Source: Sedimentisphaerales bacterium (GTDB lineage: Bacteria > Planctomycetota > Phycisphaerae > Sedimentisphaerales > UBA12454). From it: a DNA stretch of 64,000 nucleotides. Positions 11,065 through 29,284 of the stretch are shown here, in pieces. The stretch lies in contig JBEKRK010000003.1 in NCBI GenBank assembly GCA_049518795.1, positions 99,854-163,853 on the forward strand. Reading direction: 5' to 3'. The notes beneath the pieces are model-generated. The model saw only the letters and a program-made list of their open reading frames with translations. It searched no databases and was not told where the DNA came from. Every line of letters begins with the position of its first letter. Within the stretch, counting starts at the first letter, position 1. The position numbers were made by a program, and so were the translations under genes.

Positions 11065-11089
11065 TTGTTTTTTTGATAGGGTTTAAAAA

Positions 11090-12226: not shown

Positions 12227-12538
12227 AATTTTTATAAAAAGTCAAGGACATTATGTATTAAGCAGATATATTAAGTCTGCAAATATAAGCTTTGTTGTTA
12301 TCTTTTTTAAACCTGCGAAAATTTGGGGTTTATATTCAAAAGTTATATAATTAAGCTTCAGTATTATTGATTTTGAAGTATTTTTTATAGTGTAATAATA
12401 TACTCTAAATATATTATTTTTATCATAAACCAAATGTCATTTCCATAATTTTCTTGCTATTATGGTTTTATAGACATATACTAATAATGGATGAAGAAAT
12501 GAAATTGATTATTGTGTTCTTAGTTTTGGAGGTCTGAT

Positions 12539-14287
12539 ATGGCTAAAGACGTTCCAATAGAACAGTTGCGGAGCCGAACATTGGGTAGAATCCTTGTTAA
12601 AATGGGCATTTTAACAAGGGAAAAAGTCCACGAGTGTCTATCTGTAGCTAAGAAAAAAGAGGGCAAAATCTTACTCGGCCAAGTAATGCTTGAGCTTGGC
12701 GTAATCAATGACAAGCAGCTTCGCAAGGCATTGTCAGCTCAGCGGGGCATGGAGTTTGTGGAGCTGTCAGGTTCGGAATTGCCTCGCGAGGTCGTCGAAC
12801 TTATACCCGCTCAAATGGCCAATGCGTATCGTGTTGTGCCTTTGGAGTATGATAAGTCACAAAACAGTATGACCGTAGCGATTGACAGTCCGGATAATTT
12901 CAAAGCTACCGATGACTTGAGCACACTGATGGGCTTTAAAGTTATGGCAAAAGTTGCTTCACCTGCCGATATTGACGAGGTTCTCAAAAAATATTATTCG
13001 AAGGATGAGGAGAGTATTAATGACCTTATTGGTAAATTAGAGCAGGATGACTTTTTGACTGAATTCCAGGGCAGGGACCAGAGTATTGACCTCAGTGAGC
13101 TTAAAGAGCTTGCGGAATCGAACCCAGTCAAGAAACTTCTTAACCTTGTTCTTCTTCAGGCTATTAAGGACAAGGCTTCGGACATTCATTTTGAGCCGTT
13201 TGAGGATGAATTCAAGATGCGATACCGTATTGACGGTGTGCTTTATGAAATGGTTCCTCCTCCCAAGCATATTGCTGTGGCCTTAAGCTCCAGAATAAAG
13301 GTTATGGCTAATCTCGATATAGCGGAAAGACGGCTGCCGCAGGACGGCAGAATTCCGCTTACCGTAGCGGGCAATCCGATTGACCTTCGTGTCAGCATTC
13401 TGCCGACGATGTTCGGCGAAAGCGTAGTGCTTCGTGTTCTCGACAGGTCTCAGCTTGATTTGAAATTAGACAAGCTCGGAATGGATGCAGACGATTTGGA
13501 TATGATACACCAGTTGATAAAGAAGCCCAACGGAATATTGATTGTAACGGGGCCGACCGGCTGCGGCAAAACAACAACGCTGTATTCTGCTCTTAAAGAG
13601 CTTAATACAATCGACAGCAAGTTGATTACAACCGAAGACCCTGTCGAATACGATATTGACGGTATTATTCAGGTGCAGATGAAGCCGGACATTGGGCTTA
13701 CGTTTGCAAGCTGTTTGAGGTCTATTTTACGTCAGGACCCGGACATTATAATGGTCGGCGAAATTCGCGACCTTGAGACGGCACAAATTTCCGCACAGGC
13801 ATCTCTTACGGGACACCTTGTTTTTACGACACTTCACACTAACGATGCTCCCAGCGCAATAGCAAGACTTATGGACCTGGGGCTTGAACCGTTTTTGATT
13901 ACAGCGACTCTCGAAGGTATTATCGCGCAGCGGCTTGTTCGCGTGATTTGTAAAAACTGCAAGGAGGCTTATGAGCCGGCCGAAGAACAGCTGATGGAGC
14001 TTGATTTGACGCCGGAAATGATACACGGCAAGACACTTTATTATGGGCGGGGCTGCGACCGGTGCAACGGAACAGGCTACAGAGGCAGAATGGGAATATT
14101 CGAAATAATGATGTTTAATGATGAGATACGCGAAATGATAATGAACCATGCTTCTACGAATGTTTTGCGCAATGCCGCCAAAAAGGTAGGAATGAGAATG
14201 CTTCGCGAAAAAGGTCTGACGGCAATATATGACGGGCTGACAACTATTGAAGAAGTCGTCAAGGAAACGGTTATGGAAGAGCAGTAA
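12539..14287 (+). CDS. Second GspE/PilB-type ATPase (degenerate MshEN-like N-terminus)
   Basis: Walker A is GPTGCGKTTT and the tetracysteine is CKNC...CDRC. It is a paralog of the 9352 gene. A GGAGG RBS lies upstream. Confidence 0.9.
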   Translation: MAKDVPIEQLRSRTLGRILVKMGILTREKVHECLSVAKKKEGKILLGQVMLELGVINDKQLRKALSAQRGMEFVELSGSELPREVVELIPAQMANAYRVVPLEYDKSQNSMTVAIDSPDNFKATDDLSTLMGFKVMAKVASPADIDEVLKKYYSKDEESINDLIGKLEQDDFLTEFQGRDQSIDLSELKELAESNPVKKLLNLVLLQAIKDKASDIHFEPFEDEFKMRYRIDGVLYEMVPPPKHIAVALSSRIKVMANLDIAERRLPQDGRIPLTVAGNPIDLRVSILPTMFGESVVLRVLDRSQLDLKLDKLGMDADDLDMIHQLIKKPNGILIVTGPTGCGKTTTLYSALKELNTIDSKLITTEDPVEYDIDGIIQVQMKPDIGLTFASCLRSILRQDPDIIMVGEIRDLETAQISAQASLTGHLVFTTLHTNDAPSAIARLMDLGLEPFLITATLEGIIAQRLVRVICKNCKEAYEPAEEQLMELDLTPEMIHGKTLYYGRGCDRCNGTGYRGRMGIFEIMMFNDEIREMIMNHASTNVLRNAAKKVGMRMLREKGLTAIYDGLTTIEEVVKETVMEEQ

Positions 14288-14290
14288 AAG

Positions 14291-14452
14291 ATTGAACATT
14301 GAAAATTTAATATTGAAGATTTTGAATTGCGGTTTTGGTGTCGGTATCGGTAACGTCGCGTGTGTCGGTGTAAGTTTGGGTAACGTTACCGATAAACGAA
14401 AACGCCAACGAGACATTACCGTTACCTAAACCGATAAACGAAATACGAAATT
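14291..14452. repeat. Composite spacer: family D (AATATTGAA/AATTTAA words) followed by family E (GGTATCGGTAAC / ACCGATAAACGAAA words)
   Basis: It contains attgaacattgaaaatttaatattgaagattttgaatt, then ggtgtcggtatcggtaacgtcgcg..ggtaacgttaccgataaacgaaa..aaccgataaacgaaatacgaaa. Related E copies lie at 31081-31106, 32340-32367 and 37814-37855. Confidence 0.75.
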
Positions 14453-14467
14453 TTTAAAAGGTGATTT

Positions 14468-15715
14468 ATGCCGGTTTTTCAATATGAAGCTTTGGATTCG
14501 AAGGGCCAGGAAGTAAAAGGCCAGATTGAAGCGTTAAGCGGCGAAGAGGCGCTAAGCAAGATACGCAATATGGGATATTTCCCGACCAAGCCTCCCAAGC
14601 CGAAGGGCGGGGTTCGCGGCGAGAAAAAGGCAGAAGCTGCCAAGCCAAGGTCGCGGCGCGGCACAGGCGGCAGGGTAAAAATTAAGCAGCTTACGCAGTT
14701 CGCCCGGCAGCTTTCGACGCTTCAGGACGCAGGTCTGCCGATACTTCGTTCGCTCAGGATTCTCGAAGAGCAGCAGAAGCCCGGCACGTTTAAGCGTGTT
14801 ATTAAAGCTGTGGGCGACGATATCGAAGGCGGGGCGACCTTATCGGAGGCGCTCGGCAAATTTCCGCGTGCGTTCAATAGATTGTTTGTCAATATGGTTG
14901 CGGCAGGCGAAGTCGGCGGCGTGCTCGATGTGATTCTGGCAAGGCTTGCGGACTTTATGGAAAAGGCCGCACGGCTCAAAGCCAAAGTCAAAGGCGCTAT
15001 GGTGTATCCGGTTGTGGTTATGACTTTTGCGTTCGGTATGGTTTTGGTCTTGATGATAAAGGTTATTCCCAAGTTTACCGAGGTTTTGCGTGATATGACT
15101 GGCGGCGATCTGCCGGCGCTCACAAAAGGCATTATGGCTGTCAGTGACTGGATCGCGTTTCGATGGGGCTGGGCGATTATGATTGCGGTTCCAATCGCGT
15201 TTGTTTTTATATTGAAGTTTATAAAACAGTTCCCGCTCGGCAGGCTGATAGTCGATACCATTAATCTCAAAATGCCCATTGTCGGCAAACTTGTTTACAA
15301 AACGGCTGTGAGCCGCTGGACCAGAACTCTGGGAACTCTTATCAGCGCAGGCGTGCCGATACTTGAAGCTATAAACATAACTGCCGATACCGTCGGAAAT
15401 GAGGTTTATGCGAATATGCTCCGCAAGGTGCACGGCGCCATTCGGCAGGGCGATACGTTCGCGAACCCGCTCAAGCAATCCAAAACCACAGACAGCATGG
15501 TAGTTAATATGGTTGACGTCGGCGAGGAAACGGGCGATATGGACAAAATGCTTGTAAAAATAGCGAACAATTTTGATGAAGAGGTGGATGTTATGGTCGG
15601 CTCCCTGATGAGCCTGCTTGAGCCGGTGATGATTGTCTGTCTCGGTGCCGTCGTCGGAACGATTGTTTTGAGCATCTTTTTACCGATGATAAAAATTATT
15701 ACGTCATTGATGTAA
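14468..15715 (+). CDS. GspF/PilC-type inner-membrane platform protein
   Basis: MPVFQYEALDSKGQEVKGQIEA is the classic GspF/PilC N-terminus. The duplicated T2SSF domains have 3 TM helices. Confidence 0.9.
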   Translation: MPVFQYEALDSKGQEVKGQIEALSGEEALSKIRNMGYFPTKPPKPKGGVRGEKKAEAAKPRSRRGTGGRVKIKQLTQFARQLSTLQDAGLPILRSLRILEEQQKPGTFKRVIKAVGDDIEGGATLSEALGKFPRAFNRLFVNMVAAGEVGGVLDVILARLADFMEKAARLKAKVKGAMVYPVVVMTFAFGMVLVLMIKVIPKFTEVLRDMTGGDLPALTKGIMAVSDWIAFRWGWAIMIAVPIAFVFILKFIKQFPLGRLIVDTINLKMPIVGKLVYKTAVSRWTRTLGTLISAGVPILEAINITADTVGNEVYANMLRKVHGAIRQGDTFANPLKQSKTTDSMVVNMVDVGEETGDMDKMLVKIANNFDEEVDVMVGSLMSLLEPVMIVCLGAVVGTIVLSIFLPMIKIITSLM

Positions 15716-15751
15716 TTTAAAATTTAATATTGAAAATTTAAGATTTTTAAG
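15713..15751. repeat. Family D repeat beginning with the gspF stop codon
   Basis: taatttaaaatttaatattgaa is identical over 22 nt to 19911-19932. Other D copies lie at 14291-14328 and 32296-32335. Confidence 0.75.
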
Positions 15752-15835
15752 AATACCTCTTAATAAATATGAAAAATCTGTGGTAAATAAGTTTTTACCG
15801 GTGAATATAAAAAATAAATATAGGAGGAATTGATT

Positions 15836-16879
15836 ATGTTTAATGTATATCGAAAAATGTGGGCAGCGGCTGGCATTGTTCTTTGCCTGTTTAGCGCGGT
15901 TTTCGCCTATTCCGATGGAAACGGAACACCGGCCGACCCGTGTCAAATTAGGAATGTTTCCGATTGGCAGCATTTGATGAACACTCCAACAGACTGGAGT
16001 AAATATTTTATTATGACAGCAGACCTGAATCTTCAAGGCGTTACATTAACGCCTGTCGGCAATTCTACTACTACTTTTACCGGTGTCTTTGACGGCGATG
16101 GTTATGTCGTTTACAACGCGATTATAAATACACCCAGCAACACTTATGTCGGCTTGTTCGGCTGTGTCGGCAACGCCGGCCGGATTTCCTATTTAGGCGT
16201 AGAGGACGTTAATATAACCGCGCTTAGTTATGCCGGCGGTCTGGCAGGACGTAATTATGGCGGCATCGCTAAATGTTATGTTACCGGCACTGTTACCACA
16301 AGTGCTACTTATTCGGGCGGCATTGCGGGAAGGAATGATGGAAACATTATTGATTGTTATGCTACAGATTCTGTCAAAGGAAGCAGCGACGTCGGCGGCC
16401 TTGTCGGCAGCAATGGTTCATCTGTCAGCGATGTTAATACCAGCTATTCTACAGGCCTGGTAACCGGTAGCGGTTCGTATGTCGGAGGCCTTGTCGGATA
16501 TAATTACGGCGATGTTATTAATTCCTTCTGGGACGTCAACACTTCCGGCAAATCGACAAGCGCCGGCGGGACTGGAAAGACAACTGCCGAAATGCATGAT
16601 ATAAATACGTTTCTAAATGCCCATTGGGATTTTACGACGCCGATATGGAAAATAAGCAATGGAAATTATCCAAAATTAGATTGGCAGGGAATAACCGGCG
16701 ACTTTGTCAGTCCGGACGGCGTTGGCCCGGAAGACCTTGCCTTTTTTGTTCAGCGCTGGCTGGATACAAACTGCGCTGTAACTAACAATTGCAATGGAAC
16801 AGATTTAAATACAGACGGCACTGTGAACTTCCTTGACTTTGCGCTCTTTGCTAATAACTGGCTTGAAGGAAAAGACTAA
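15836..16879 (+). CDS. Secreted GLUG-motif repeat protein with C-terminal dockerin/EF-hand-like module
   Basis: It has a signal peptide and repeated G-G-L-(A/V)-G-x-N motifs (GGLAGRN, GGIAGRN, GGLVGSN, GGLVGYN). The C-terminus is DLNTDGTVNFLDFALFANNW. An AGGAGG RBS lies 8 nt before the ATG at 15836. Confidence 0.7.
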   Translation: MFNVYRKMWAAAGIVLCLFSAVFAYSDGNGTPADPCQIRNVSDWQHLMNTPTDWSKYFIMTADLNLQGVTLTPVGNSTTTFTGVFDGDGYVVYNAIINTPSNTYVGLFGCVGNAGRISYLGVEDVNITALSYAGGLAGRNYGGIAKCYVTGTVTTSATYSGGIAGRNDGNIIDCYATDSVKGSSDVGGLVGSNGSSVSDVNTSYSTGLVTGSGSYVGGLVGYNYGDVINSFWDVNTSGKSTSAGGTGKTTAEMHDINTFLNAHWDFTTPIWKISNGNYPKLDWQGITGDFVSPDGVGPEDLAFFVQRWLDTNCAVTNNCNGTDLNTDGTVNFLDFALFANNWLEGKD

Positions 16880-16952
16880 AAAATAAAAGAAATAATCGGT
16901 GAAATCCGTGAAATCAGTGGTTTAAAAATAGTTATTATTGAAAGGTCATAAG

Positions 16953-17957
16953 ATGAAAACGAAAAAAAGAAAATTTGGTTTTACAATCGTTGAGCTTCTG
17001 ACAGTAATGGCAATTATAGCACTTTTACTGACTATTCTCACGCCTGCCCTTCGAATGGTGCGCAGGATTGCCAAGGATACGGCTCAAAAAGCGCAGTTTC
17101 ACAGTATCGATGTTGCGCTGGAAACCTACTCCGGCGAAATGGAACAGTATCCCACTTCTACTGTTCAACCTTGGGATTCGATAAATAACGAATTGGGCAA
17201 TGCTCCTTATACCGTAGGCGCGCATCATTTGGCCGAAGCCCTTCTTGGCAGAGATATGCTCGGTTATGACCCGTGGTCAACCTGGGACTCAGAACAAGAT
17301 GACACAACAGGCCATTATCATGATATCTATGCCAGTAAAGATAAGGGTTCAGATGATACCCAGATTTCCAAAAGTCTTGACCGCAGAAAAGGCCCTTATT
17401 TAAGTCCGGATAGTGTTGAATCATATCAGATTGCTCAATTATATACCGATACTACTCCTGGAGTCGGTGATGTTTATCCCGGCAATCTTGACAAGACCGG
17501 AAACGTTGTTTCGGGGCATTCTCCTGCCCCTGTTCTTACAGATTCCTATCTGGTTAAGACAATATCCCTGCCGAACGGCAGGCAGGTAAAGGCCGGCTCG
17601 CCGATTCTTTATTACAAGGCAAATATTAATTCGAGGATTTTTGAGAACTCCAAAAATGGAACAACTGGATCTGCTCAAACTGTATCAGATGCGTGTTCTA
17701 TACAAGGTATCTACGACAGTTTTGATAATGAGGCATTGCTCAAGCTTGGCTCTGTAGCAGACCAGAGCAAAAGGCATCTTTTTGATAAGGATGAAGGCGG
17801 AGCATTAGTAGGACGAACCAAGTTTTATGATATGATAACGAATCCTACGATTACGACTCAGGTCCGGCCTTTCAACCAGACAAGCTACATTCTTATGTCG
17901 GCAGGTTACGACGGCATTTTCGGCACGCCGGACGATATTTATAACTTTAAGAACTAA
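16953..17957 (+). CDS. Prepilin-type pseudopilin, enlarged GspG-family paralog 1
   Basis: The leader and cleavage motif is KKRKFG|FTIVELLTVMAIIALL. The C-terminal GspG-like loop is SAGYDGIFGTPDDIYNF. I moved the start to the ATG at 16953. Confidence 0.8.
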   Translation: MKTKKRKFGFTIVELLTVMAIIALLLTILTPALRMVRRIAKDTAQKAQFHSIDVALETYSGEMEQYPTSTVQPWDSINNELGNAPYTVGAHHLAEALLGRDMLGYDPWSTWDSEQDDTTGHYHDIYASKDKGSDDTQISKSLDRRKGPYLSPDSVESYQIAQLYTDTTPGVGDVYPGNLDKTGNVVSGHSPAPVLTDSYLVKTISLPNGRQVKAGSPILYYKANINSRIFENSKNGTTGSAQTVSDACSIQGIYDSFDNEALLKLGSVADQSKRHLFDKDEGGALVGRTKFYDMITNPTITTQVRPFNQTSYILMSAGYDGIFGTPDDIYNFKN

Positions 17958-18065
17958 ACCGCGGATTACGCGGATTGCGCGGATTTAAAAAGATGTAAAG
18001 AAGTAAGGATGTAAGGAAATAAGGAACTATCTGCGTTAATCTGTGAAATCTGTGGCTGAAAATCG
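17958..18065. repeat. Spacer made of three consecutive stutter arrays (CGCGGATTN x3, GTAAGGAN x4, AATCTGTGN x3)
   Basis: It contains accgcggattacgcggattgcgcggattt, gatgtaaagaagtaaggatgtaaggaaataaggaac and ctgcgttaatctgtgaaatctgtggctgaaaatcg. Confidence 0.8.
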
Positions 18066-18077
18066 AAGGGTGAAAAT

Positions 18078-19070
18078 ATGAAGACCGAAACAAATAATAG
18101 CCGCAAAGACTCTGAATCGCTAAGAACAAGAAGTAATAATTTTAAAACTTCGTGTCTTGGTGTCTTAGTGGCTAAAAAGGGGTTCACTCTCGCCGAGCTT
18201 ATTACCGTAGTCGTGATAATCGCAATTCTGCTGGGGATTTTAATGCCGGCCCTGTCGCAGGTAAAAAAAATAGCGCTTGAAGCCAAACAAAAGGCCCAGA
18301 TTACCAGCATCGAAGTCGGCATAAATATGTATAGAAACGACTTCGGTGCATACCCGCCGTCTCACGGCACGCAGACGGCTACTGAGTCGGTTTACTACTA
18401 CTGCGGCGCCCAGACCCTTACAGAAGCTATGTTCGGCTGGGATTTGCTGGGTGTTCACCAGAACTCAATCTTCAGGGCGGATGGACAAGACAACTCAGGC
18501 AATAATCTTTATCCTCCAGGCCCTAATTCGACAGAACTCAATGCCAGAAAAGAGCCTTATCTTGACAGGACGAATATCGGCGTTTTTACGCCTCGCCAGA
18601 TTTTTAATCAAACCTCTTTTCCAGCTTTTCCCGGCGGTTTGGATGCGGACAGGTATGTTATTTGTGATGTTTTTTCTGCTGCAAGCAGAGAAATCAACGG
18701 AAAATCTTATAAGGTCGGCACACCCGTCCTCTATTTTCAGGCAAACCTTGCTCCTGTAAATACACAAGGGCTTATAATTGCTTCTGCACCGCCTGATAAT
18801 AAGAACAATATTTATAACTATATGGATAATAATTTTCTTATAGAACTGGGAAAAATGACTAACACAACAACAGCTCATCCGCTTTATACGCCTCCCCCTT
18901 ATACAGGTGAACCATTTTATAAATATATTGTTGACCCAATGATTCCTGCAGCGTCCGGAACTGTCGGAATGCCTGTTCGAAAAGATACGTTTCTTTTGAT
19001 TTCAGCGGGCTTCGATGGCCTATACGGCACAAAAGATGATATATGTAATTTTAATCCGAATGTACAGTAA
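18078..19070 (+). CDS. Prepilin-type pseudopilin, enlarged GspG-family paralog 2
   Basis: It has VAKKG|FTLAELITVVVIIAILL and SAGFDGLYGTKDDICNF. The likely true start is GTG 18168 inside a repeat element, giving the short leader MAKKG. ATG 18078 would give an atypical 35-aa leader. Confidence 0.75.
   Translation: MKTETNNSRKDSESLRTRSNNFKTSCLGVLVAKKGFTLAELITVVVIIAILLGILMPALSQVKKIALEAKQKAQITSIEVGINMYRNDFGAYPPSHGTQTATESVYYYCGAQTLTEAMFGWDLLGVHQNSIFRADGQDNSGNNLYPPGPNSTELNARKEPYLDRTNIGVFTPRQIFNQTSFPAFPGGLDADRYVICDVFSAASREINGKSYKVGTPVLYFQANLAPVNTQGLIIASAPPDNKNNIYNYMDNNFLIELGKMTNTTTAHPLYTPPPYTGEPFYKYIVDPMIPAASGTVGMPVRKDTFLLISAGFDGLYGTKDDICNFNPNVQ
18148..18175. repeat. Family A right-arm half copy overlapping the 5' end of a pseudopilin gene
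   Basis: The sequence is cttcgtgtcttggtgtcttagtggctaa. GTG at 18168 is in frame with the prepilin motif. Confidence 0.8.
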
Positions 19071-19079
19071 AAAGTAAAT

Positions 19080-19328
19080 GAAAATACGAAGCACGAAATC
19101 CGAAATTCGAAACAATATCAAATGTTCAAAATACAAAGGTTCGAAACAGTTTTGAATTTTGGTAATTCGTATTTTGAATTTGCTTGCCCTGTGAGATGCC
19201 GCTTCGGCTATCTCTCTGGGGTTTCGGATTTCGATACTTGTCCGCCACAGCCTCGGCGACGGCGGATTCGAATTTCGAATTTAAAAACAAATTTGTGTTT
19301 ATCTGTGTTTATTTGTGGCTAATTTACG
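19080..19328. repeat. Composite spacer: family F + P + Q + TGTGTTTA array
   Basis: The F copy (agcacgaaatccgaaattcgaaacaa..tcaaatgttcaaaa) recurs at 49754-49815. The P copy is at 19187-19221 and the Q copy at 19237-19266. These are followed by atttgtgtttatctgtgtttatttgtggctaa. Confidence 0.75.
19187..19221. repeat. Family P bulged hairpin repeat
   Basis: The sequence is ccctgtgagatgcc-gctt-cggctatctctctgggg. Confidence 0.7.
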
Positions 19329-19336
19329 GCGGAATT

Positions 19337-19906
19337 ATGTTGAAGATGACAAACAAAAACGGCCTGACTATCGTGGAGATTCTGGTCGCTGTTACGATAA
19401 TAGCGCTCCTTGCCGCAGGACTGTATTCCGTCAGCAATTATCTTGAAAAACAAGCCAAAATAAAACTTACCGAATCGACAATCGAAGCCCTTTCTGCCGC
19501 CATCGAGCAGTATCGCGATTTTAACGGACATTTTCCTTTTGTGACTGGCACAGGTTCTTATGGTCTAAGTCAGCTTCAAACAACTCTTAATGGAACCGTC
19601 GTAAATCCCACTGATTACAATGACATATATGCTTCAAGTGATGCTTTGTATTATATTTTAAATCAAGTCCCCGCAAGCAAGAAGATTATCGATAACCTGA
19701 ACCGTTCGCTGGTTACAAATAAAGACTATAAAGGCACAGAATATTTTATTCTTATCAACGGTGTGAATTATCCATTGATACATATTATTGACCCGTGGAA
19801 GTGTCCGTTGAGATATACGTATAAAGATAGCGATAATTTTCCGTTAATAGAGTCAACCGGGCCGGACAGGGATTTTAATACGCCTGACGATATCAGCAGC
19901 AGATGA
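19337..19906 (+). CDS. gspG: GspG-like major pseudopilin
   Basis: It has MLKMTNKNG|LTIVEILVAVTIIALL, then IIDPWKCPLRYTY (the GspG DPWG-x-PY motif) and a GPDRDFNTPDDI loop. The ORF-track extension back to 19184 consists of repeats. Confidence 0.8.
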   Translation: MLKMTNKNGLTIVEILVAVTIIALLAAGLYSVSNYLEKQAKIKLTESTIEALSAAIEQYRDFNGHFPFVTGTGSYGLSQLQTTLNGTVVNPTDYNDIYASSDALYYILNQVPASKKIIDNLNRSLVTNKDYKGTEYFILINGVNYPLIHIIDPWKCPLRYTYKDSDNFPLIESTGPDRDFNTPDDISSR

Positions 19907-19910
19907 TAAA

Positions 19911-20013
19911 TAATTTAAAATTTAATATTGAAGATTGAAAATTTAAAATATTTAAAACCGTGTAAATCCGTGTTAATCCGTGTCTCAAAAAGTCAGTGTT
20001 AGTCAGTGTCGAT
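19911..20013. repeat. Composite spacer: family D + AATCCGTGT array + AGTCAGTGT array
   Basis: It contains ccgtgtaaatccgtgttaatccgtgtctc and agtcagtgttagtcagtgtc. The same composite occurs in reverse orientation at 42556-42600. Confidence 0.75.
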
Positions 20014-20895
20014 ATGAAAAGAGCTTTTTCCATTATTGAATTGCTTGTTGTGATGGCGGTAATCGCGTTGCTTGTAGTGATTGCGATACCTGCGATAAAC
20101 GCGATGCAGAAGTCTTTCGATTCGACCGGCTCAGAATCGATGATTAGCACAGCCCTTGCCACCGCAAGAACATTAGCAATAAAAAACAACCATTACACCG
20201 GCGTCAGATTCCAAAAAGCATGGTATAAACCTTCTTCTGACCCTGCTGTTCCGCCTTACGATAACCTCAGCAAGGCCGACCAGTATATGATTTTTATAAC
20301 TTACAACAGCGATAAAACAGGTCTGGATTGCGGTTTTATTGCTATGGATGGTTATAAACCTATAAAACTTCCGGAAAATATCTGTGTAATAGATAAAATT
20401 GTAAGAAATTATACTGTTAGCGTGACTCCAAGAACCTGTGGTAATCCAATAGTTGAAACAGGTTTAAGCCCAAGCGATCTTGATGATGTTACAGCAAATC
20501 TCGACCCTGCTACTGAACCCTATCTTGAACATGACAACATACACATCAGGGATACTTCAACATTTTCGATTGTTTTTTCTCCCTCGGGAAAACTTGTTAC
20601 ATTGGAAGTTAGATGCAGAAATAATGATAAACAAAGCAGGCCCGCATTAAATGCAGCTTCCGGTTCCGATGATAAGGTTTTTAATAGTTATTATGATATT
20701 GCTACCGGCAACGGTCAGTTTTTGCAGGATGATTATGACGATTTCGGAGTGGGCGTAGAGAATAGTCGAACAAATTTTGTTATATATGACCGGGGAAAAT
20801 TTGAAAAGATGACGACAAGCACGCAGAAAATGGATTATCTAACTGGACTAAAGGCAATGAATATAAATCCCTATACCGGCGAGATTATTAAATAG
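20014..20895 (+). CDS. Minor pseudopilin (GspH-like by position)
   Basis: It starts MKRA|FSIIELLVVMAVIALL with a prepilin motif. It occupies the gene-order position of GspH. I moved the start to the ATG at 20014. Confidence 0.65.
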   Translation: MKRAFSIIELLVVMAVIALLVVIAIPAINAMQKSFDSTGSESMISTALATARTLAIKNNHYTGVRFQKAWYKPSSDPAVPPYDNLSKADQYMIFITYNSDKTGLDCGFIAMDGYKPIKLPENICVIDKIVRNYTVSVTPRTCGNPIVETGLSPSDLDDVTANLDPATEPYLEHDNIHIRDTSTFSIVFSPSGKLVTLEVRCRNNDKQSRPALNAASGSDDKVFNSYYDIATGNGQFLQDDYDDFGVGVENSRTNFVIYDRGKFEKMTTSTQKMDYLTGLKAMNINPYTGEIIK

Positions 20896-20927
20896 AATGT
20901 AGAATATAGAACATAGAATTTAGAATA
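20893..20927. repeat. Five tandem heptamers TAGAAYN starting with the gspH-like stop codon
   Basis: The units are tagaatg tagaata tagaaca tagaatt tagaata. The 7-nt period places TAG in all three frames. Confidence 0.85.
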
Positions 20928-20945
20928 AATTAAAATAAAAATTTT

Positions 20946-20973
20946 CTTTGTGTCTTGGTGTCTTAGTGGCTAA
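20946..20973. repeat. Family A right-arm half copy containing the start codon of the gspI-like gene
   Basis: The sequence is ctttgtgtcttggtgtcttagtggctaa, with TTG at 20948 and GTG at 20966. Confidence 0.8.
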
Positions 20974-21667
20974 GAAATTTAAACAAAGCGGTTTTTCTCT
21001 TACCGAGGTCTTGATGGCCGCAGGCATTCTTTCTATCGGTATGATGCTGGTAGCCACGATGTTTCCGGTCGCGATTTACCTGACAAGCATATCGGTCGAA
21101 AGGACAATGGCCGCTATTGTTGCTGATGAAGCATTCGCGAAAATTCAGCTTTACGGCATTGGCACGCCTATTCTCAATATCGGCGATTATAACGATATCC
21201 CCGGCCTGACAATTGACCCCTGCGAATTTTCGTATAATCCGACACAAGCTCTAACAAATCCCCAATATTACTGGTCAGCCGTTTACAGAAAATTGAGCCC
21301 GGTGGACCCGAATTATCAGATGACGGTCTTTGTCGCCAGAAAAACAAATCCGGGACTGACGTATCCCAACCCTGGCGGTCCGTCTTATGATAGACCAAAA
21401 CTTATTATGATTCAGAGTATAGTGCAACCTGATCCGAATTTCCTGGTCGTTACGGTTTATCCGCAATATGTTAATCCGCCGACAGCGATACTCGATAATG
21501 CTACCGGTAAAATATACCGCGTTATTGACAGGCAGAATACTAAGGTGAAACTTGACAGAGGCTGGGAAGATTCGACCGGCCCAGCTAATATTTGGCTTAT
21601 TCCTCCGCCCGTAACCGGCGGACGAAATGCGGATATCGAAGTTTATCAGAGAATAATAAGATTTTAA
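20948..21667 (+). CDS. Minor pseudopilin (GspI/PilV-like by position)
   Basis: It has KQSG|FSLTEVLMAAGILSIG. There is no in-frame ATG upstream. The start must be TTG 20948 or GTG 20966, and both lie inside a repeat element. Confidence 0.65.
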   Translation: MCLGVLVAKKFKQSGFSLTEVLMAAGILSIGMMLVATMFPVAIYLTSISVERTMAAIVADEAFAKIQLYGIGTPILNIGDYNDIPGLTIDPCEFSYNPTQALTNPQYYWSAVYRKLSPVDPNYQMTVFVARKTNPGLTYPNPGGPSYDRPKLIMIQSIVQPDPNFLVVTVYPQYVNPPTAILDNATGKIYRVIDRQNTKVKLDRGWEDSTGPANIWLIPPPVTGGRNADIEVYQRIIRF

Positions 21668-21670
21668 GGA

Positions 21671-21743
21671 TAGCCACAAAGGCACAAAGACACGAATAAA
21701 AATAATATATAAAAAACTTAGTGCCTTGGTGTCTTAGTGGCTA
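21671..21743. repeat. Family A inverted stutter element (TAGCCAC...GTGGCTA), full copy
   Basis: The left arm is tagccacaaaggcacaaagacacgaa, the centre is AT-rich (20 nt) and the right arm is cttagtgccttggtgtcttagtggcta. The arms are built from the 8-nt word CTTNGTGN. Confidence 0.85.
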
Positions 21744-21749
21744 ATTGAT

Positions 21750-22496
21750 ATGAAAAAAGGCTTTACTATTATCGAATTATTAGTTGCGATGGGTTTGTTT
21801 GCGGCCGTCATCGCGGCGGCGGGTATGATTTTTAATTATTCAATCGAGTCCCAGAGAACCGCCGCGGCCACTGCCGAGATTATGCGAACCCTCCGCGCAA
21901 TTACCGACCAGATTGATATTGATTTCCAGAGTCTGCGAACAGATGGATATTTAATTTTATATTCAGAGCAGGTCGGCAGCGATAATTATGATGCCCTTTA
22001 CTATTTCAGCACAGGCGATTATCAGTCGTGGGCAGATACTTCGACAAGATCCAACATTGCCCGAATCTTTTTAGGACACAGTCAATCGACTTATACCGGC
22101 AAAATATTGCCCGGCGATTTGGCAAGAGATATTCTTCTTTTAGTTCCGGGTTATACAGGAACGGGCAATGATGTGAAAAATATAAGTTTTGCTGAGTGTC
22201 AGGCAGCTATTACTAATCTCGAAAATCCTAATACCGCGTTTTTTACTACTGGCAGGCCGCCCGCTGGCTCCACGAATATCGGAAGTCTTTTTGCTCAAAA
22301 AGTTGGCAGTTTTAGAATTGAATGGACTAATGGAATCAGCGGAAATCGAATAAATTGGTCTTCGACAGCGATTACCTGCACGCCGACAAGTTCGAACTGG
22401 CCGAAGGCTCTTAAATTTACGTTCACGCTTTATGATTCCAAAAGGATTCTCAAAGGCGGCAGAACGTTTGAACATATAGTTTATATAGGACCGTAG
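21750..22496 (+). CDS. Minor pseudopilin (GspJ/PulJ-like)
   Basis: It has MKKG|FTIIELLVAMGLFAAV followed by a long N-terminal helix. It sits before the GspK-like gene. Its stop TAG is the first triplet of a repeat element. Confidence 0.65.
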   Translation: MKKGFTIIELLVAMGLFAAVIAAAGMIFNYSIESQRTAAATAEIMRTLRAITDQIDIDFQSLRTDGYLILYSEQVGSDNYDALYYFSTGDYQSWADTSTRSNIARIFLGHSQSTYTGKILPGDLARDILLLVPGYTGTGNDVKNISFAECQAAITNLENPNTAFFTTGRPPAGSTNIGSLFAQKVGSFRIEWTNGISGNRINWSSTAITCTPTSSNWPKALKFTFTLYDSKRILKGGRTFEHIVYIGP

Positions 22497-22569
22497 CCAC
22501 AAAGACACAAAGGCACTAAGAAAAGGTGATATATATTAAAAAACTTCGTGTCTTGGTGCCTTCGTGGCG
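22494..22569. repeat. Family A element, full copy; its first TAG is the stop of the gspJ-like gene
   Basis: The sequence is tagccacaaagacacaaaggcactaag / aaaaggtgatatatattaaaaaa / cttcgtgtcttggtgccttcgtggcg. Confidence 0.85.
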
Positions 22570-22591
22570 CCCTTTAAAGGAGGGCAGAAAA

Positions 22592-25195
22592 ATGATAAAA
22601 AAGATGATAAAACAATTTGAATATGACAGGCTGGGTTCTGCGTTAATTATGACCATTGTCCTGACGATAATGCTCGCTGTAATAGCCGTGATGTTTGTGG
22701 CTATTGCAAGGATGGATAGCGCAGCCACAAGCAATATTGCCGATAATAAAACCCTCGATTTAGCTGCCAAGTCAATTATAGAGCTTATCAATGGCCAACT
22801 TGTTAGCGATACACCGCCAATTGGAGGCACTTATTATGATTATCCAGATTCTCAGCATCCCTGGCTCGCAAGCAATGAGCCGTATCAAGACCCGACAGTT
22901 CCAACTAAATATTATTGGCGGCAAATAAGCGATGTGACGAATTATCTGCATCAACACTTCTATCTTACAAATAATATAGATACTGATTATCCAGGCGTCA
23001 GAGATGTAATATTAGATTATCCAGTTATAACTCTTGATGGCAGCGGTAACTTACAGGACAATTTGGCCGATGCTGATGGCGATGGTATCCTTGATTCAAA
23101 ATGGATTGAACTTACGGATTTGCGAACTTCAAAAGGAAAGAAAATTTACGCCGCCGTCAGGGTAATTGACAATAGCGGAATGGTCAATGTCAATACCGCG
23201 TATCAGTTTGACCCTACCAGCGGCAGTCAAGCGAGAATTGACGGTTCAACCCAAATGCAGATAAATCTCAAAGGTCTCTTGAAGTCCAGCGATGATATTG
23301 GTAGCTTGCAAGCTGCTCGTTTAGGCTCTGCGACACTCCCCCAAAGCTGGGCTGATTATCAAAAAAAGATTATCTGGCAATACGGCCTGCCTGCGGACGG
23401 CAATTATCGTCCCTTTGATATTTCCGATGAGCTTGAATTAAGATACAGATATTGTATTGACAGTAAATTTGAAAGCCGCTTGGAAAAGGTGCTGCCTCAA
23501 ACTTCTGATGCAGGCATAAACGCCGGAAGCCTTTATGATGCAGCTGGTAGCGGCCGGGGACTTGAAGAATGGCAGGCCAGAATTACAGAAACCAACAGCA
23601 TAGGCATTCGCAGGCATTATTTGACAACTCTGAATCTTGACAGGATTATTGCCCCTGACGGCAATAAAATGACCAATATAAATGATGCTAATGTGAATGA
23701 ATTATACAATGCCATTCTCAATAGCGGCGTTGACGCTAATACGGCCGCCCAAATGGCGGTCAATATAATTGATTATCGGGATAGCGATTCGAATGTTACT
23801 GCTTTTAATGTGGGTTCTACCACTTATTATGGTTTCGAGACCCCCTGCATTTACATTTCCGAATTAGCTTACAATAAAAGTGGCAGCAATATGTCTTACG
23901 CAATCGAACTTTATAAGCCTTATTCCGGTGATTTAGATCCTGTTGGATGGAAACTTCATAGTGACCTCACAGGCAATTATTATAATATTAACTGGTCGGG
24001 GACAAAGCAGTTTTATGTTATAAAGTGGGAGAGCCCCGGAGTTTCATTTGTTATAGATCCTTGCGCTTCAACCCAAGATGGAGGTGCTCCGGGTTCTGGC
24101 ATTTTCAGTGCCGGCACTACGATTTCATTAATACGCACAGTTAAGGTTGGAGCTGCTGATATTGATATTACAGTTGATTCTTTTATTGTTCCTGTTGGTT
24201 GGTCGCCTTCAGGCAATGGTATTTATAGTCTTCAAAGAGATATTGCATCTGCAAAATGTATAAGGTGGTCGGGGATGGCGGGTATTCGGGGTTTGTGGGG
24301 CGGGATGGTCAGTGGTTCTCAAACTCTGGGATTGATTAATACCGCTATACCTCCTGATGATGGCAAATATATCCAAGCTCATCCAAAAAATGCCGCCTTC
24401 ACAAATATCGGTGAGATTGGAATGATTTTCCGCAAACCGGCTTATTATCCTTATATAGGTAGCAGCGCACCTGCCGGTACAATTGGTTATGATAGCACTG
24501 CTGATGAGGAATCTGAAGTTTTTGTCGATTTGTCCCAAACGACTTATCAGCAGATTTTTAAATATCTTACCGTTATCGACCCTTATAACGCTGTTGATCG
24601 GTTAAATCCAAATCCGGCTTATTTAAATGAAACAAGAATTAAAGGCAGGATAAATATCAACACCGCCCCTGCGTATGTGTTGGCTCAATTGCCGTGGGTT
24701 TCGCTAAGAAATGACCCCGTCGGCTACAACAATGCCAATCTTGCCAATGCGATAGTTGCTTATAGAGATAAACAAAACCTTTCTCCTTCCGGCCCTGATT
24801 ATAGAAGTTCAGACCCTTGTGGTTTTAGAACTATTGGCCAGCTAATGAATGTCCGTTACCCGCCTCAGGATTACCGGATTGATTATTATAGTCGTGTTTT
24901 AACTGGAGACCAGCCGGGATTTCCTGATTTAAGCGGCGGCGATGGCGCTCCGGATGATTATGAAGAGCGGGATTTAATTTTCACCCGAATCAGCGACCTT
25001 GTAACGGTTCGCAGCGATGTCTTTACCGCTTATATTTTAGTGCGTGTCTGCACAAATGTTAAAAGTGATGGGACAATTGAAGGCCCGCAGAAAAGATACA
25101 TCGCAATTCTCGACAGAAGCCAAGTGGGAGACTCTCGATTTCCGGGTAATAAGGTTATAATAAGAGCCTTTCAGGTTGTGCCGGAAGCACGTTAG
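22592..25195 (+). CDS. Giant GspK-like minor pseudopilin (about 867 aa)
   Basis: It has the non-canonical hydrophobic N-terminus LGSALIMTIVLTIMLAVIAVMFVAIA. The C-terminal motif RIKGRININTAPAYVLAQLPWVS is GspK-type. DADGDGILD is Ca-site-like. An AAAGGAGGG RBS lies before the ATG at 22592. Confidence 0.7.
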   Translation: MIKKMIKQFEYDRLGSALIMTIVLTIMLAVIAVMFVAIARMDSAATSNIADNKTLDLAAKSIIELINGQLVSDTPPIGGTYYDYPDSQHPWLASNEPYQDPTVPTKYYWRQISDVTNYLHQHFYLTNNIDTDYPGVRDVILDYPVITLDGSGNLQDNLADADGDGILDSKWIELTDLRTSKGKKIYAAVRVIDNSGMVNVNTAYQFDPTSGSQARIDGSTQMQINLKGLLKSSDDIGSLQAARLGSATLPQSWADYQKKIIWQYGLPADGNYRPFDISDELELRYRYCIDSKFESRLEKVLPQTSDAGINAGSLYDAAGSGRGLEEWQARITETNSIGIRRHYLTTLNLDRIIAPDGNKMTNINDANVNELYNAILNSGVDANTAAQMAVNIIDYRDSDSNVTAFNVGSTTYYGFETPCIYISELAYNKSGSNMSYAIELYKPYSGDLDPVGWKLHSDLTGNYYNINWSGTKQFYVIKWESPGVSFVIDPCASTQDGGAPGSGIFSAGTTISLIRTVKVGAADIDITVDSFIVPVGWSPSGNGIYSLQRDIASAKCIRWSGMAGIRGLWGGMVSGSQTLGLINTAIPPDDGKYIQAHPKNAAFTNIGEIGMIFRKPAYYPYIGSSAPAGTIGYDSTADEESEVFVDLSQTTYQQIFKYLTVIDPYNAVDRLNPNPAYLNETRIKGRININTAPAYVLAQLPWVSLRNDPVGYNNANLANAIVAYRDKQNLSPSGPDYRSSDPCGFRTIGQLMNVRYPPQDYRIDYYSRVLTGDQPGFPDLSGGDGAPDDYEERDLIFTRISDLVTVRSDVFTAYILVRVCTNVKSDGTIEGPQKRYIAILDRSQVGDSRFPGNKVIIRAFQVVPEAR

Positions 25196-25294
25196 CCACG
25201 AAGGCACAAAGACACGAAATATATAATTAAAAAACTTAGTGCCTTGGCTTGTCCCGCCATAGCCTTTTGGCGACGGCGGATGTCTTAGTGGCTA
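25193..25294. repeat. Family A element, full copy, filling the whole spacer between two convergent genes; both terminal TAGs are the stop codons
   Basis: The left arm spans 25193-25218. The right arm (25235-25247 plus 25281-25295) is interrupted by a 33-nt insert. TAG at 25193 ends the gspK-like gene. The reverse complement of CTA at 25292-25294 ends the minus-strand gene. Confidence 0.85.
25248..25280. mobile_element. 33-nt family Q mini-element precisely inserted into a family A arm
   Basis: Removing cttgtcccgccatagccttttggcgacggcgga restores cttagtgccttggtgtcttagtggctaa. That sequence is identical to the right arm at 21717-21744. Related copies lie at 19237-19266 and 41354-41386 (reverse complement), with shorter forms at 32983-33008 and 33063-33082. 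Confidence 0.6.
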
Positions 25295-25633
25295 ATTTTT
25301 GAGCAGTAGTTGATGCACTATCGCGGCTATAAGCCAGGCCGCGAATGAAAAAGCCACTGTCGGCAGGATTGAAATCTGCTTTTTAAAGCACAAAAAAGCG
25401 ACAATAAAGAAAAATACGGTGGGAATTATTCCCCATAAAACGCCTCTTGTGAAATCGGTCATCAGTTTAAAATCGCCGGGCCTGTCAGACCACAGCCAAA
25501 GAAGGACTATCAGCGTTGTTATCGGCGCTGTCGCTATCAGGCCCGCAAGAGCAGGCGCCTTTTTGCCGATTTGGGAGCAGAAAGTAATTATCGCAATCGT
25601 TATCAAAAGCTTGATAAGAAACTTTGTATCCAT
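25292..25633 (-). CDS. Small 4-TM membrane protein, unknown function
   Basis: It is 113 aa with four hydrophobic helices. Its stop codon is the terminal TAG of the repeat element at 25193-25294. Confidence 0.5.
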   Translation of the reverse strand: MDTKFLIKLLITIAIITFCSQIGKKAPALAGLIATAPITTLIVLLWLWSDRPGDFKLMTDFTRGVLWGIIPTVFFFIVAFLCFKKQISILPTVAFSFAAWLIAAIVHQLLLKN

Positions 25634-25740
25634 TCGTTTTCCCTTTAGAAAAAGAATCGCTGATTACGCTGATTTCACAGAAGTAATTTAGAAATAATAT
25701 AATCAACGAAATCCGTGTAATCTGTGATTAAAAAAAGAAT

Positions 25741-29226: not shown

Positions 29227-29284
29227 AAATTTTTTTATGATAAATTTTTTCTCTGCATTCTCGGCATTCTCTGTGGTGAACGTC

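Follow-up and report, generated by a model that had tools for sequence, protein, structure and literature searches.

Intergenic heptamer repeats have been known since 1990, when short tandemly repeated repetitive (STRR) heptanucleotides were reportedly described by Mazel et al. in Calothrix and Anabaena, in intergenic and intercistronic regions of operons; in cyanobacteria, several heptamer families are tandemly amplified and other small repeats are nested among them. Bacterial long simple-sequence repeats (LSSRs) were surveyed in 2007, and heptamers, according to the summaries of Mrazek (2007) given in PMC4679880 and PMC4692102, are the most common of them and are attributed to polymerase slippage. 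In Xanthomonas (GGGAATC) and Nostoc (GGGGA(C/T)T), such repeats lie nearer the end of the upstream open reading frame (ORF) and differ among close relatives (Rehm et al. 2015, PMC4692102). TAACTGA repeats, known from marine Beggiatoaceae, Cyanobacteria and Bacteroidetes, stand shortly before start codons in forward orientation, and in most cases no ribosome-binding site accompanies them (PMC4679880). The origin and function of intergenic heptamer repeats are unsettled. Here we describe an unusually rich case, found in a 64,000-nucleotide stretch of a Sedimentisphaerales metagenome contig (hereafter, the window), whose intergenic spacers carry tandem arrays of 7-10-nt words. The lineage combines many word families per genome with a positional grammar, a fixed polarity, predicted stems that loop out the spacer and a sharing of the arrays with phage contigs, and at least one copy is conserved well beyond neutral sites, all of which makes translational coupling, RNase III processing and protein-binding platforms concrete, testable hypotheses.

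The word arrays are a genuine, non-random and lineage-wide feature, and the spacers that carry them hold dispersed, fast-turning-over repeat modules, present in Sedimentisphaerales genomes and in some phage contigs. As called with Tandem Repeats Finder (TRF; period 6-16, at least 2.5 copies) and compared with dinucleotide shuffles (n=100), the 5.56 kb of intergenic DNA of the window contain 17 arrays (524 nt), whereas the shuffles yielded 0.84 on average and never more than 4; the 58 kb of coding DNA contain 10 (0.17 versus 3.06 arrays per kb). Adjacent word pairs of each family listed in the preliminary description of this DNA are 4 to about 180-fold denser in intergenic than in coding DNA, and CACNAAGR x3 occurs six times in a pattern scan of the window, with 0.00 expected. 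The density rises to approximately 10.7 arrays per kb of intergenic DNA over 14288-25300, which is occupied by an operon, compared with 1.6 per kb outside it. In 80 related loci from species-representative genomes, there are 1.43 arrays per kb of intergenic DNA and 0.11 per kb of coding DNA, and the intergenic/coding ratio in these loci and in the window is about 13-18 fold; close relatives with 42-46% GC carry 2-12 arrays per kb, and relatives above 52% GC nearly none. The preliminary description had considered that the words might be no commoner than composition predicts, or absent from relatives; the excess over shuffles and the presence of the same word families in relatives speak against both.

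Window positions 13733-18173 have a match of 100% identity in a Logan assembly contig (SRR7028477), which may share its source sample with the window, and arrays recur in dozens of metagenome-assembled genomes (MAGs) obtained with differing pipelines. Given that a second assembly is identical and that relatives carry the same word families, the arrays are not an assembly artefact. Word repeats do fragment short-read assemblies: the Logan contig SRR7028477_296333 ends at the equivalent of window position ~21712, 38 nt upstream of the gene at 21750 and within the foldback at 21669-21746. Array sites listed in the preliminary description were borne out, either by TRF (14291, 15714, 16894, 17960, 17995, 19094, 19912, 19953, 20892, 29174, 32296, 32342, 42145/42215 and 50742), by inspection of the spacers (18031, 25655, 25707, 31081, 31712, 37088, 37766, 37814, 42556 and 49754) or by reading the sequence (31972). 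Its statement that nearly every spacer is tiled describes 14288-20973 well, where seven of seven spacers carry arrays, but overstates the window as a whole, in which TRF finds them in 13 of the 39 spacers of at least 25 nt (about half by eye).

An array consists of 2.5 to 6 imperfect copies of a word of 7-10 nt, mostly 7 nt (among 180 intergenic arrays, the period is 7 in 114, 8 in 30, 9 in 19 and 10 in 14). The TRF match within window arrays is 73-94%, and the logos of the families have one or two fully degenerate columns. About 12 word families recur, each in two complementary forms. The families previously counted as eight do recur, but they merge in part when the opposite strand is taken into account: CGCGGATT, being AATCCGCG in reverse complement, falls into the AATC(C/T/A)G(T/C)G family, and the words at 32340 belong to the TAAC(C/T)GA family. 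The families present in many genomes are CACNAAGR/YCTTNGTG, AAGGAAGT/ACTTCCTT, CRCNGATT/AATCNGYG, GTTATCRG/CYGATAAC, ATTGAAGA/TCTTCAAT, AAAATCA/TGATTTT, YAGAAYN and CTCTGTG; relatives further off have a TAGTTCR/YGAACTA family. The idea that each word mutates at fixed positions holds for families, as illustrated by 92 CAC words from 14 genomes whose columns read C-A-C-N (1.9 bits)-A-A-G (90%)-R, but not within single arrays, in which mismatches are not significantly concentrated in fixed columns (5 of 66 arrays at p<0.05, with 3.3 expected).

The position of the arrays follows the stop and start codons. It had been suggested that arrays begin at stop codons, and indeed 61 of 142 start within 10 nt of the upstream stop, as against 32.4 expected, a value that none of 20000 simulations with uniform placement in the spacer reached. 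Several arrays take the stop codon as their first word (TAGAATG TAGAATA at 20892, and TAGCCAC at 22494 and 25193). At the far end of the spacer, arrays are scarcer than expected in the final 10 nt ahead of the following start (19, with 32 expected). Typically, one form of a word begins at the stop or a few bases from it, and the other closes 5-25 nt ahead of the following start, frequently with GTGG(C/T)T(A/G)A and then an A-rich linker. Lone arrays are strand-asymmetric, the A-rich or CAC form following a stop 39 times and the mirror arrangement being found 8 times. The depletion of arrays in convergent spacers (0.79 versus 3.16 arrays per kb) is not significant per spacer (4 of 22 versus 102 of 308, p=0.17), and two of the window's spacers counted as convergent rest on doubtful ORFs.

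The arrays of 14288-20973 sit within a type II secretion/type IV pilus-like (pseudopilin) operon. Those of the window are the following, with predicted folding energies and z-scores where calculated; H1 and H2 are two families of GC-rich hairpins, and bit scores refer to nhmmer matches with a profile of the CAC/GTG foldback.

14288-14324, plus strand: ATTGAAN/AATTTAA heptamers, 4.4 copies (TRF), starting 3 nt past the gspE stop
14325-14455, plus strand: foldback of ~135 nt, in which a G/T-rich arm of GGTATCGGTAAC words is paired with an A/C-rich one of TTACCGATAAAC words; fold of 14320-14460, -41.9 kcal/mol, z -2.1
15713-15746, plus strand: AATTTAA/ATTGAAA heptamers, 4.7 copies (TRF), overlapping the gspF stop and beginning 2 nt inside the ORF end
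16894-16925, plus strand: AATCNGTG x3 ending in GTGGTTTAAAAA (TRF), upstream of the ribosome-binding site of the first pseudopilin; no partner, unfolded (z -0.6)
17958-18059, plus strand: foldback, 5' arm CGCGGATT x3 pairing with AATCTGYG x3 of the 3' arm, which also holds GTGGCTGAAAA; fold of 17955-18080, -32.4 kcal/mol, z -4.3
17989-18026, plus strand: array in the loop of the 17958 foldback, GTAAGGAA x4
18097-18175, plus strand: CAC/GTG foldback with a degenerate 5' arm and a GTGGCTAA end (42.7 bits); CACNAAGR x3 matches exactly on the minus strand at 18148-18170
19072-19282, plus strand: three successive hairpins; fold of 19068-19345, -81.9 kcal/mol, z -4.9
19072-19185, plus strand: first of these, an A-rich/U-rich word foldback with CGAAAT words
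19187-19221, plus strand: second, the GC-rich H2 (pattern search)
19237-19266, plus strand: GC-rich H1 (pattern search), around which the CGGATTTCG/TTCGAATTTCGAA arms of the third hairpin are placed
19294-19320, plus strand: TGTGTTTATC x2.4 ending in GTGGCTAA (TRF), upstream of the third pseudopilin start
19912-20009, plus strand: three joined lone arrays, AATTTAA/ATTGAAG x5.4, TAAATCCGTG x3.1 and AGTCAGTGTT x1.9 (TRF); unfolded (z +0.4)
20892-20927, plus strand: TAGAATN x5, the first word being the TAG stop of the gene (TRF)
20940-20974, plus strand: lone GTG arm (TCTTNGTG x3 and GCTAA) over a pilin start codon (half match with nhmmer, exact pattern)
21669-21746, plus strand: full CAC/GTG foldback between two pseudopilin genes (69.5 bits); fold of 21665-21752, -25.2 kcal/mol, z -4.9
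22492-22575, plus strand: full CAC/GTG foldback (73.5 bits); the upstream TAG stop provides the first three bases of TAGCCAC, and the 3' arm is followed by a Shine-Dalgarno (SD) sequence and ATG
25191-25299, plus strand: CAC/GTG foldback (54 bits) with the stop codon inside its 5' arm and H1 (25248-25280) nested in its 3' arm; -36.2 kcal/mol, z -4.1
29174-29271, minus strand: GAACATCGAAC-type heptamers x5.4 and GAGAATGCC x2.6 (TRF), downstream of a minus-strand gene
32296-32361, plus strand: ATTGAAA x4.4, then TAAC(C/T)GA x2.9, 16 nt upstream of the next ORF (TRF, pattern scan)
37739-37853, plus strand: joined modules, namely a CAC arm (TAGCCACTAAGACACGAAGACACAAAGA), GTAAGGAG-type words and GGTATCGGTAAC words (TRF, spacer inspection, half match with nhmmer)
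42145-42251, no strand assigned: AAGGAAGT x5.2 ... TCCTTACT x4.6 foldback in a divergent spacer; fold of 42130-42265, -47.4 kcal/mol, z -5.6
48334-48449, minus strand: CAC/GTG foldback (39.7 bits) with nested H2 (48349-48381), its GTG arm adjoining the uvrA start
50742-50774, minus strand: AAATTTAAAAATCAAAA heptamers 1 nt past the stop of a minus-strand gene, in the orientation of the gene (TRF)

In the copy of the CAC/GTG foldback at 21669-21746, the layout is TAGCCAC(NAAGRCAC)n, an AT-rich loop and (GTGYCTTN)nGTGGCTA, with one mismatch per 8-nt word. Wherever one spacer contains both forms of a word, they are arranged as X...X' without exception, which applies to 13 of 13 host spacers and to 24 of 24 CAC/GTG pairs of viral contigs. 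As an X...X' order reads alike on both strands, it is an intrinsic polarity of the element and not an orientation relative to transcription, and the notion of a "CAC first, GTG second" rule locked to transcription was rejected for this reason; the asymmetry of the lone arrays is the only true strand effect. The paired forms would give imperfect stems of 20-45 bp, with approximately one mismatch per word. Among co-directional spacers of close relatives, a z-score below -2 is found in 29 of 60 with arrays and in 15 of 61 without them. For the 29 spacers that fold well, the medians place the beginning of the widest stem 4 nt past the stop and its end 18 nt before the called start; this stem encloses 81% of the spacer. 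The median co-directional gap is 113 nt with arrays and 28.5 nt without them, and the unpaired remainder of a stem-bearing spacer is about 22 nt; by looping out some 80% of the spacer, the stem thus leaves an unpaired gap close to the normal, array-free length.

Based on this geometry, the predicted folding, the conservation between relatives and the phage context, the reading that we favour, with a probability of roughly 45%, is that word runs born by slippage are kept as intercistronic RNA stems that would couple translation, undergo RNase III-type processing or stabilise the mRNA. The runs would arise and change length through slipped-strand duplication and template switching; only imperfect copies would last, since perfect repeats are unstable, and modules would be swapped or replaced between spacers. 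They would then be transcribed in a polycistronic mRNA, from the sigma-70-like promoter upstream of gspE, and form hairpins between its cistrons. A ribosome terminating at the base of such a stem might melt it and expose the initiation region of the next cistron, in this way coupling the translation of the two genes, while a mismatched stem of 20-25 bp could equally act as an RNase III-type processing site or as an mRNA stabiliser, as in the polycistronic mRNAs of phage T7. Lone arrays would be half-elements or newly born runs. Of the four functions previously put forward (arrays of protein-binding sites, insulators between operon genes, recombination substrates, and signals for mRNA processing or stability), mRNA-level signals fit the anatomy best, given that the stems run from just past the stop to just before the ribosome-binding site and that spacers with arrays fold better; arrays for protein binding are possible, and the results do not touch on insulators or recombination substrates. 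The complementary pairing, the membership in a known repeat class and the identity of the TAAC(T/C)GA words had been overlooked.

The transcriptional side of this proposal finds a counterpart upstream of gspE, where a sigma-70-like promoter (TTGCTA-17-TATACT, 12454-12482) is conserved in nine genomes. It lies in a leader (12390-12538) that carries no arrays, whose core is invariant across nine genomes (AAACCA.ATGTC...ATAATTTTCTTGC...GTATA.T) and which is probably the promoter of the pseudopilin operon. The conserved promoter and the array-free leader would fit a single transcript running through the array-bearing spacers, and a terminator scan found no plus-strand intrinsic terminator in the spacers of the operon (20 sites overall with 13.6 expected, mostly within genes).

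Nonetheless, several observations weigh against intercistronic RNA stems. An alignment of 12 CAC/GTG copies contains no compensatory changes, the variable positions being mismatched in about half of the copies and the overall pairing being no better than in shuffles. Just 26 of 180 arrays (~14%) have a Watson-Crick inverted partner that beats all 30 shuffles, around half of the array-bearing spacers are not significantly folded, and the arrays at 16894, 19912-20009 and 20892 are unstructured. A comparison of sense and antisense folding, by which G-U wobble pairs might reveal selection on RNA, does not single out the arrays: the sense strand has the better folds, yet its lead is larger in array-free spacers (-5.1 versus -2.8 kcal/mol), and spacers with at least two arrays have no sense/antisense bias (14 versus 11). 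Moreover, individual copies are dispensable, because orthologous spacers at 90% GspF identity have no arrays or unrelated ones, and the high identity of the foldback at 21668 between relatives, detailed below, could reflect homogenisation instead of purifying selection, as paralogs within the window are equally similar.

The comparison with a close relative that has the same operon (locus L083, GspF 90% identical) gives a measure of the turnover. The ribosome-binding sites are kept between the two, while most arrays are replaced or missing. The gspE-gspF gap is 180 nt in the window and 30 nt in L083 (27 to 180 nt across relatives), where only some 2.5 ATTGAAN copies are present and the foldback of 14325-14455 is absent; a related element occupies the same site in L007. 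At the 16880 spacer, L083 has an unrelated GAGTTNT/AAAACTC hairpin in place of AATCNGTG x3, and the 269-nt spacer at 19071 corresponds to 44 nt without arrays. Orthologous elements, when present, keep their copy number. The counterpart of the 20892 array in L083 reads TAGAACT followed by CAGAACN x4, which indicates a concerted change of this TAGAAY array. The 5' arm of the 17958 foldback is 87% identical to that of L083, in which the loop array has been replaced, and the foldback of 21669-21746 is 81% identical to its ortholog, compared with 53% at fourfold-degenerate sites and 62-67% for the flanking pilin proteins. As both values exceed that of the fourfold-degenerate sites, either constraint or homogenisation towards the family consensus would be at work.

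Could such a turnover be that of DNA without any function? That neutral replication slippage in DNA under no constraint gave rise to the arrays, which would be neither functional nor mobile, is in our view very unlikely, in spite of the high turnover, of the stop-incorporating arrays that look like local duplications (20892, and the TAGTTCA arrays of relatives) and of a heptamer bias that, in the summaries of Mrazek (2007) by PMC4679880 and PMC4692102, is general in bacterial long simple-sequence repeats. Slippage in unconstrained DNA accounts poorly for the recurrence of the same word families at many loci, across genera and in phage contigs, for invariant core positions side by side with fully degenerate ones, for a fixed X...X' polarity, for a conservation above that of neutral sites or for the strand asymmetry of lone arrays.

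The same filled and empty sites between close relatives, together with the wholesale replacement of modules, are what would be expected if the paired arrays were selfish, non-autonomous mobile foldback elements, with inverted arms made of tandem words, that enter spacers and are devoid of host function, similar to MITEs (miniature inverted-repeat transposable elements) or to the foldback elements of Drosophila, the lone arrays being decayed halves. A profile of the CAC/GTG element, built from six sequences (nhmmer), has 74 matches, and copies are dispersed within the genome, at least seven being in the window: full copies at 18097-18175, 21669-21746, 22492-22575, 25191-25299 and 48334-48449 (minus strand), and half copies at 20940-20974 and 37735-37766. 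The copies are alike even in the AT-rich loop, their fixed X...X' polarity and defined termini (TAGCCAC...GTGGCTA) are as expected from descent from a single founder, and other small hairpins nest at a fixed spot inside the foldbacks. We consider this mobile-element explanation unlikely, however. The flanks of the aligned full copies lack a consistent target-site duplication (where a TA borders a copy, it belongs to the palindrome, and other copies do not have it) and the termini vary (GCCAC, ACCAC and CGCCAC versus GTGGC, GTGGT and GTGGCG). No transposase was matched among the window ORFs scanned against Pfam (most of those in 12.5-59.5 kb), the same 8-nt core is conserved among contigs over a GC range of 44-67% and reaches five copies per 5 kb in those of phages, the elements are precisely placed relative to stop and start codons, and one orthologous foldback copy is far better conserved than neutral sites.

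As for the nested hairpins, H2 (CCCYGTGAGAT...ATCTCAYCGGGG) has copies at 19187-19221, 32050-32092 and 48349-48381 (minus strand) of the window and at 8478-8512 of L004. Three of the four (32050, 48349 and L004) interrupt a CAC/GTG arm at its end, on the inner side of the terminal TAGCCA/TGGCTA word, and share their relative orientation, whereas the 19187 copy has another sequence context; the pattern suggests that H2 is a small, site-specific mobile hairpin. H1 (CTTGTCCGCC...GGCGGA) is found at 19237-19266, 25248-25280 and 49691-49724 (minus strand) of the window and at 12355-12435 and 13520-13600 of L020, nesting either in GTG arms between ...TTGG and TGTCTT... or in CGAAAT arms; it is reminiscent of the small dispersed repeats found within the heptamer arrays of cyanobacteria. 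The G/T- versus A/C-arm foldbacks form another family, of 90-135 nt (CGGTAACG ... ACGATAAACGAAAC), with copies at 14325-14455 of the window, at 9890-9985, 12446-12533 and 13428-13551 of L007, and at 1560-1660 of L003, the last nested in the loop of a AAGGAAGT foldback. This family occupies the gspE-gspF spacer in the window and in L007, but not in the closer relatives L083, L003 and L017.

The arrays also extend to viral contigs. CACNAAGR x3 occurs in at least 120 stretches of IMG/VR contigs, which, among the matches listed, include genes for tail-tube, capsid and Mu-like protease proteins and carry up to five copies per 5 kb; AATCYGTG x3 and GTAARGA x3 are found in 17 viral stretches each. 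The CACNAAGR core is constant across contigs of 44-67% GC. Viral CAC/GTG foldbacks sit between genes, their 3' arm usually ending ~10-20 nt before an SD sequence and ATG, and an ORF-opening ATG lies within 5-30 nt of the end of a GTG array 82 times, compared with 48 for random positions. An SD-like tetramer follows the array in 32 of the 82 starts within 25 nt, so the arrays are not general SD substitutes. Besides this, noncoding stretches of L342 (IMGVR_UViG_3300031885_000054; 2841-3014, 4566-5574 and 6368-6832) and of L353 are crammed with modules, AATCCGTG...GTGGTTAA and CTCTGTG...GTGGCTA, up to eight or more per stretch and on a single strand, and the 37-kb viral contig 3300009285_002914 has both CAC and AATCYGTG arrays.

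The proximity of the start-side arms to initiation codons deserves separate attention. The terminal motif GTGG(C/T)T(A/G)A (GTGGYTRA) has 1.12 occurrences per kb in noncoding and 0.058 per kb in coding DNA, and 40 of 45 instances face the 5' end of a gene that shares their strand. In 18 instances an ORF-opening ATG follows within 15 nt, and in 16 of these there is no SD-like tetramer in between, as in GTGGCTAAAAAAATGAAAAAAGC, which gives MKKAFT. In the gene at 20963, the GTG of the motif is likely the start codon itself: GTG GCT AAG opens the reading MAKKFKQSG|FSLTEV, with the same arrangement in L083. The start given by the gene caller to this pilin (21014) lies downstream of its GFSLTEV prepilin cleavage motif, and its real start, GTG 20963 or TTG 20948, is inside the GTG array. 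Likewise, GTG 18165 in the GTGGCTAA end of the foldback at 18097-18175 may be the true start of a pilin gene, giving MAKKGFTLAEL; the 29-residue N-terminal extension of the ORF at 18078 is translated CAC/GTG foldback. Thus, the arrays mislead gene callers, which set pilin starts downstream of the cleavage motif and take repeat-built stretches for ORFs. The use of arrays as a replacement for SD sequences was discarded as a general rule, although true of some pilin genes, and so was a role as sigma-70 promoters, as the promoter of the operon is unlike them and the distance from motif to ATG goes from 1 to more than 40 nt.

These same starts invite the view that the word runs are arrays of binding sites for RNA- or single-strand-binding proteins steering translation initiation or the fate of the mRNA, with the hairpins as a secondary trait; ribosomal protein S1, Csp, CsrA or TRAP/HutP-like multimers would be candidate binders. 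The combination of a conserved core with fully degenerate spacer positions (CAC-N-AAG-R, UAG-NNNN x5 at 20892, AAGGA words) recalls the target arrays of TRAP, HutP or CsrA. The strand specificity of the lone arrays (39 versus 8) and the 16 ATGs near the motif that are not preceded by an SD-like tetramer point in the same direction. So do the TAAC(T/C)GA arrays, which lie 16-23 nt upstream of starts and are forward in seven of seven cases, as in Beggiatoaceae (PMC4679880), where a protein-binding role was proposed for the TAACTGA repeats by MacGregor (2015, PMC4679880). We nevertheless hold a protein-binding array to be doubtful: some 12 unrelated word families would need either many binders or one highly promiscuous binder, the families swap at orthologous spacers without visible consequence, and the 32 of 82 phage starts that retain an SD-like tetramer after the array fit it badly.

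A bolder variant, which we regard as rather improbable, is that the word-array foldbacks are a dedicated expression signal of hosts and phages, read by a conserved factor or by the ribosome, that hands ribosomes from a stop codon to the next, often SD-less, start. The main candidates for such a signal would be the CAC/GTG element ending in GTGGYTAA and the TAAC(T/C)GA arrays. If it were true, this would represent a distinct mode of translational coupling or initiation and would explain why TAACTGA precedes starts in the same orientation in Beggiatoaceae, Cyanobacteria, Bacteroidetes and Planctomycetota.

With regard to its genomic setting, the window is a section of a 303-kb metagenome contig (ENA ERZ27250059 k141_510208), and its GspF/PilC is 80-85% identical to proteins of MAGs labelled Sedimentisphaerales, Anaerohalosphaeraceae or Phycisphaerae, which places the host in the Sedimentisphaerales (Planctomycetota). 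Besides the genes for GspE (12539-14287) and GspF (14468-15715), the operon encodes a GLUG/dockerin protein, six products bearing prepilin N-methylation motifs and, with its end at 25195, a protein of 889 aa; three paralogous T2SSE/PilB-type ATPases (570, 378 and 582 aa) follow one another at 9352-14287, before the sole GspF gene. The rest is ordinary chromosome (McsA/McsB, fucose isomerase, UvrA, endonuclease V, LpxC-FabZ, LpxA, BamA and DnaB), with a restriction-modification system and, among the ORFs scanned against Pfam (most of those in 12.5-59.5 kb), no match to a transposase family. Defence-type genes occupy 32374-35613 and 38077-40732, including an HNH-AP2 endonuclease-like ORF, a Dam-type methylase, a MutH/Sau3AI-like nuclease, an N6/N4 methylase and, in an island of 31-34% GC, a pair formed by an OLD-family ATPase-TOPRIM and a UvrD-like helicase, Gabija-like in appearance. 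Two ORFs have no Pfam match: 25292-25633 (minus strand, 113 aa) and 31928-32353 (plus strand, 141 aa). The latter is made largely of repeat modules, so that 31643-32373 is probably one 730-nt, repeat-filled noncoding stretch. Tandem repeats in frame within coding DNA, with 45-nt units (15-nt sub-period) in the N-terminal part of a BamA-like gene (57884-57972) and 27-nt units in a small minus-strand ORF (60900-60958), are unrelated to the intergenic word arrays.

It remains to place the arrays among known systems. The preliminary description had set them apart from REP/BIME (repetitive extragenic palindromic sequences/bacterial interspersed mosaic elements), ERIC (enterobacterial repetitive intergenic consensus), Correia and CRISPR organisation, and we agree: the arrays are tandem words and not single, tagged palindromes as in REP/BIME (the nested H1 and H2 hairpins are more REP-like in this respect), and their units of 7-10 nt are contiguous and degenerate, unlike those of CRISPR. 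Intrinsic terminators were dismissed as well, as none was found in the operon spacers and the foldbacks are followed by A-rich, not T-rich, sequence; in some relatives, an A-rich array, a GC hairpin and a T-rich array together look like a terminator. Rfam has no match in the whole window, with only chance-level matches (E up to 1) in 14000-26000, and full-text literature searches returned no report of such repeats in Phycisphaerae or Sedimentisphaerales.

Phage T7 has intercistronic RNase III hairpins and E. coli has stabilising REP hairpins. Like them, the foldbacks are predicted to form imperfect stems of ~20-25 bp between cistrons, upstream of the next ribosome-binding site and repeated along a putative polycistronic unit, in phage contigs too. 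There is no sequence similarity, and the arms here are tandem words. MITEs and eukaryotic foldback (FB) elements, whose arms in the case of FB are also composed of short tandem repeats, resemble the modules in being small, dispersed elements with inverted arms and with filled and empty sites between relatives, and the CAC/GTG foldback does have terminal inverted repeats on a short, multi-copy noncoding element. It was not assigned to the MITEs because no consistent target-site duplication was seen, and it further differs in that no transposase partner was found among the ORFs scanned, in its precise stop/start placement and in a core conserved across very divergent genomes. Cyanobacterial STRRs, as far as they are described, are alike in having multiple intergenic and intercistronic heptamer families with nested small repeats, but the words and the phylum are other ones (CCCCAGT, TTGGTCA and CAACAGT are not among the 180 array consensus units).

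The closest resemblance is to the LSSRs and the TAACTGA repeats. As in the former, the units are head-to-tail, of 5-11 nt and mostly of 7 nt, exceed what composition predicts, are overwhelmingly intergenic, lie nearer the upstream ORF than the downstream one and differ between close relatives in both length and sequence, with a function that is unsettled for the published repeats (PMC4692102). Unlike them, there are about 12 families per genome, the copies are 75-90% identical and not perfect or near-perfect, with fixed degenerate positions, the complementary forms on the stop and start sides pair into spacer-spanning stems, and the words are not G-rich, so that no quadruplex is expected. The CTGATAAC/GTTATCAG family is a rotation of the heptamer TAAC(T/C)GA, which extends the published repeat to a further phylum, Planctomycetota not being among those reported. 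At least two copies of TAAC[CT]GA are found at 32344-32357 of the window and at eight sites in L010, L011 and L017, all intergenic and with up to eight copies; the seven forward arrays that are followed by a gene are all directed towards that gene, and the pilin genes that follow them in L010, L011 and L017 lack an SD-like tetramer. The intergenic location, the 2-8 copies and the forward orientation shortly before start codons are shared with the published repeats, whereas here they are one family of many, usually with a reverse-complement array after the preceding stop that would complete a hairpin, and they end 16-23 nt before the start instead of at a mode of ~1 nt (PMC4679880). On the whole, we judge the arrays to be a many-family, imperfect and position-specific variant of the class of intergenic heptamer repeats.

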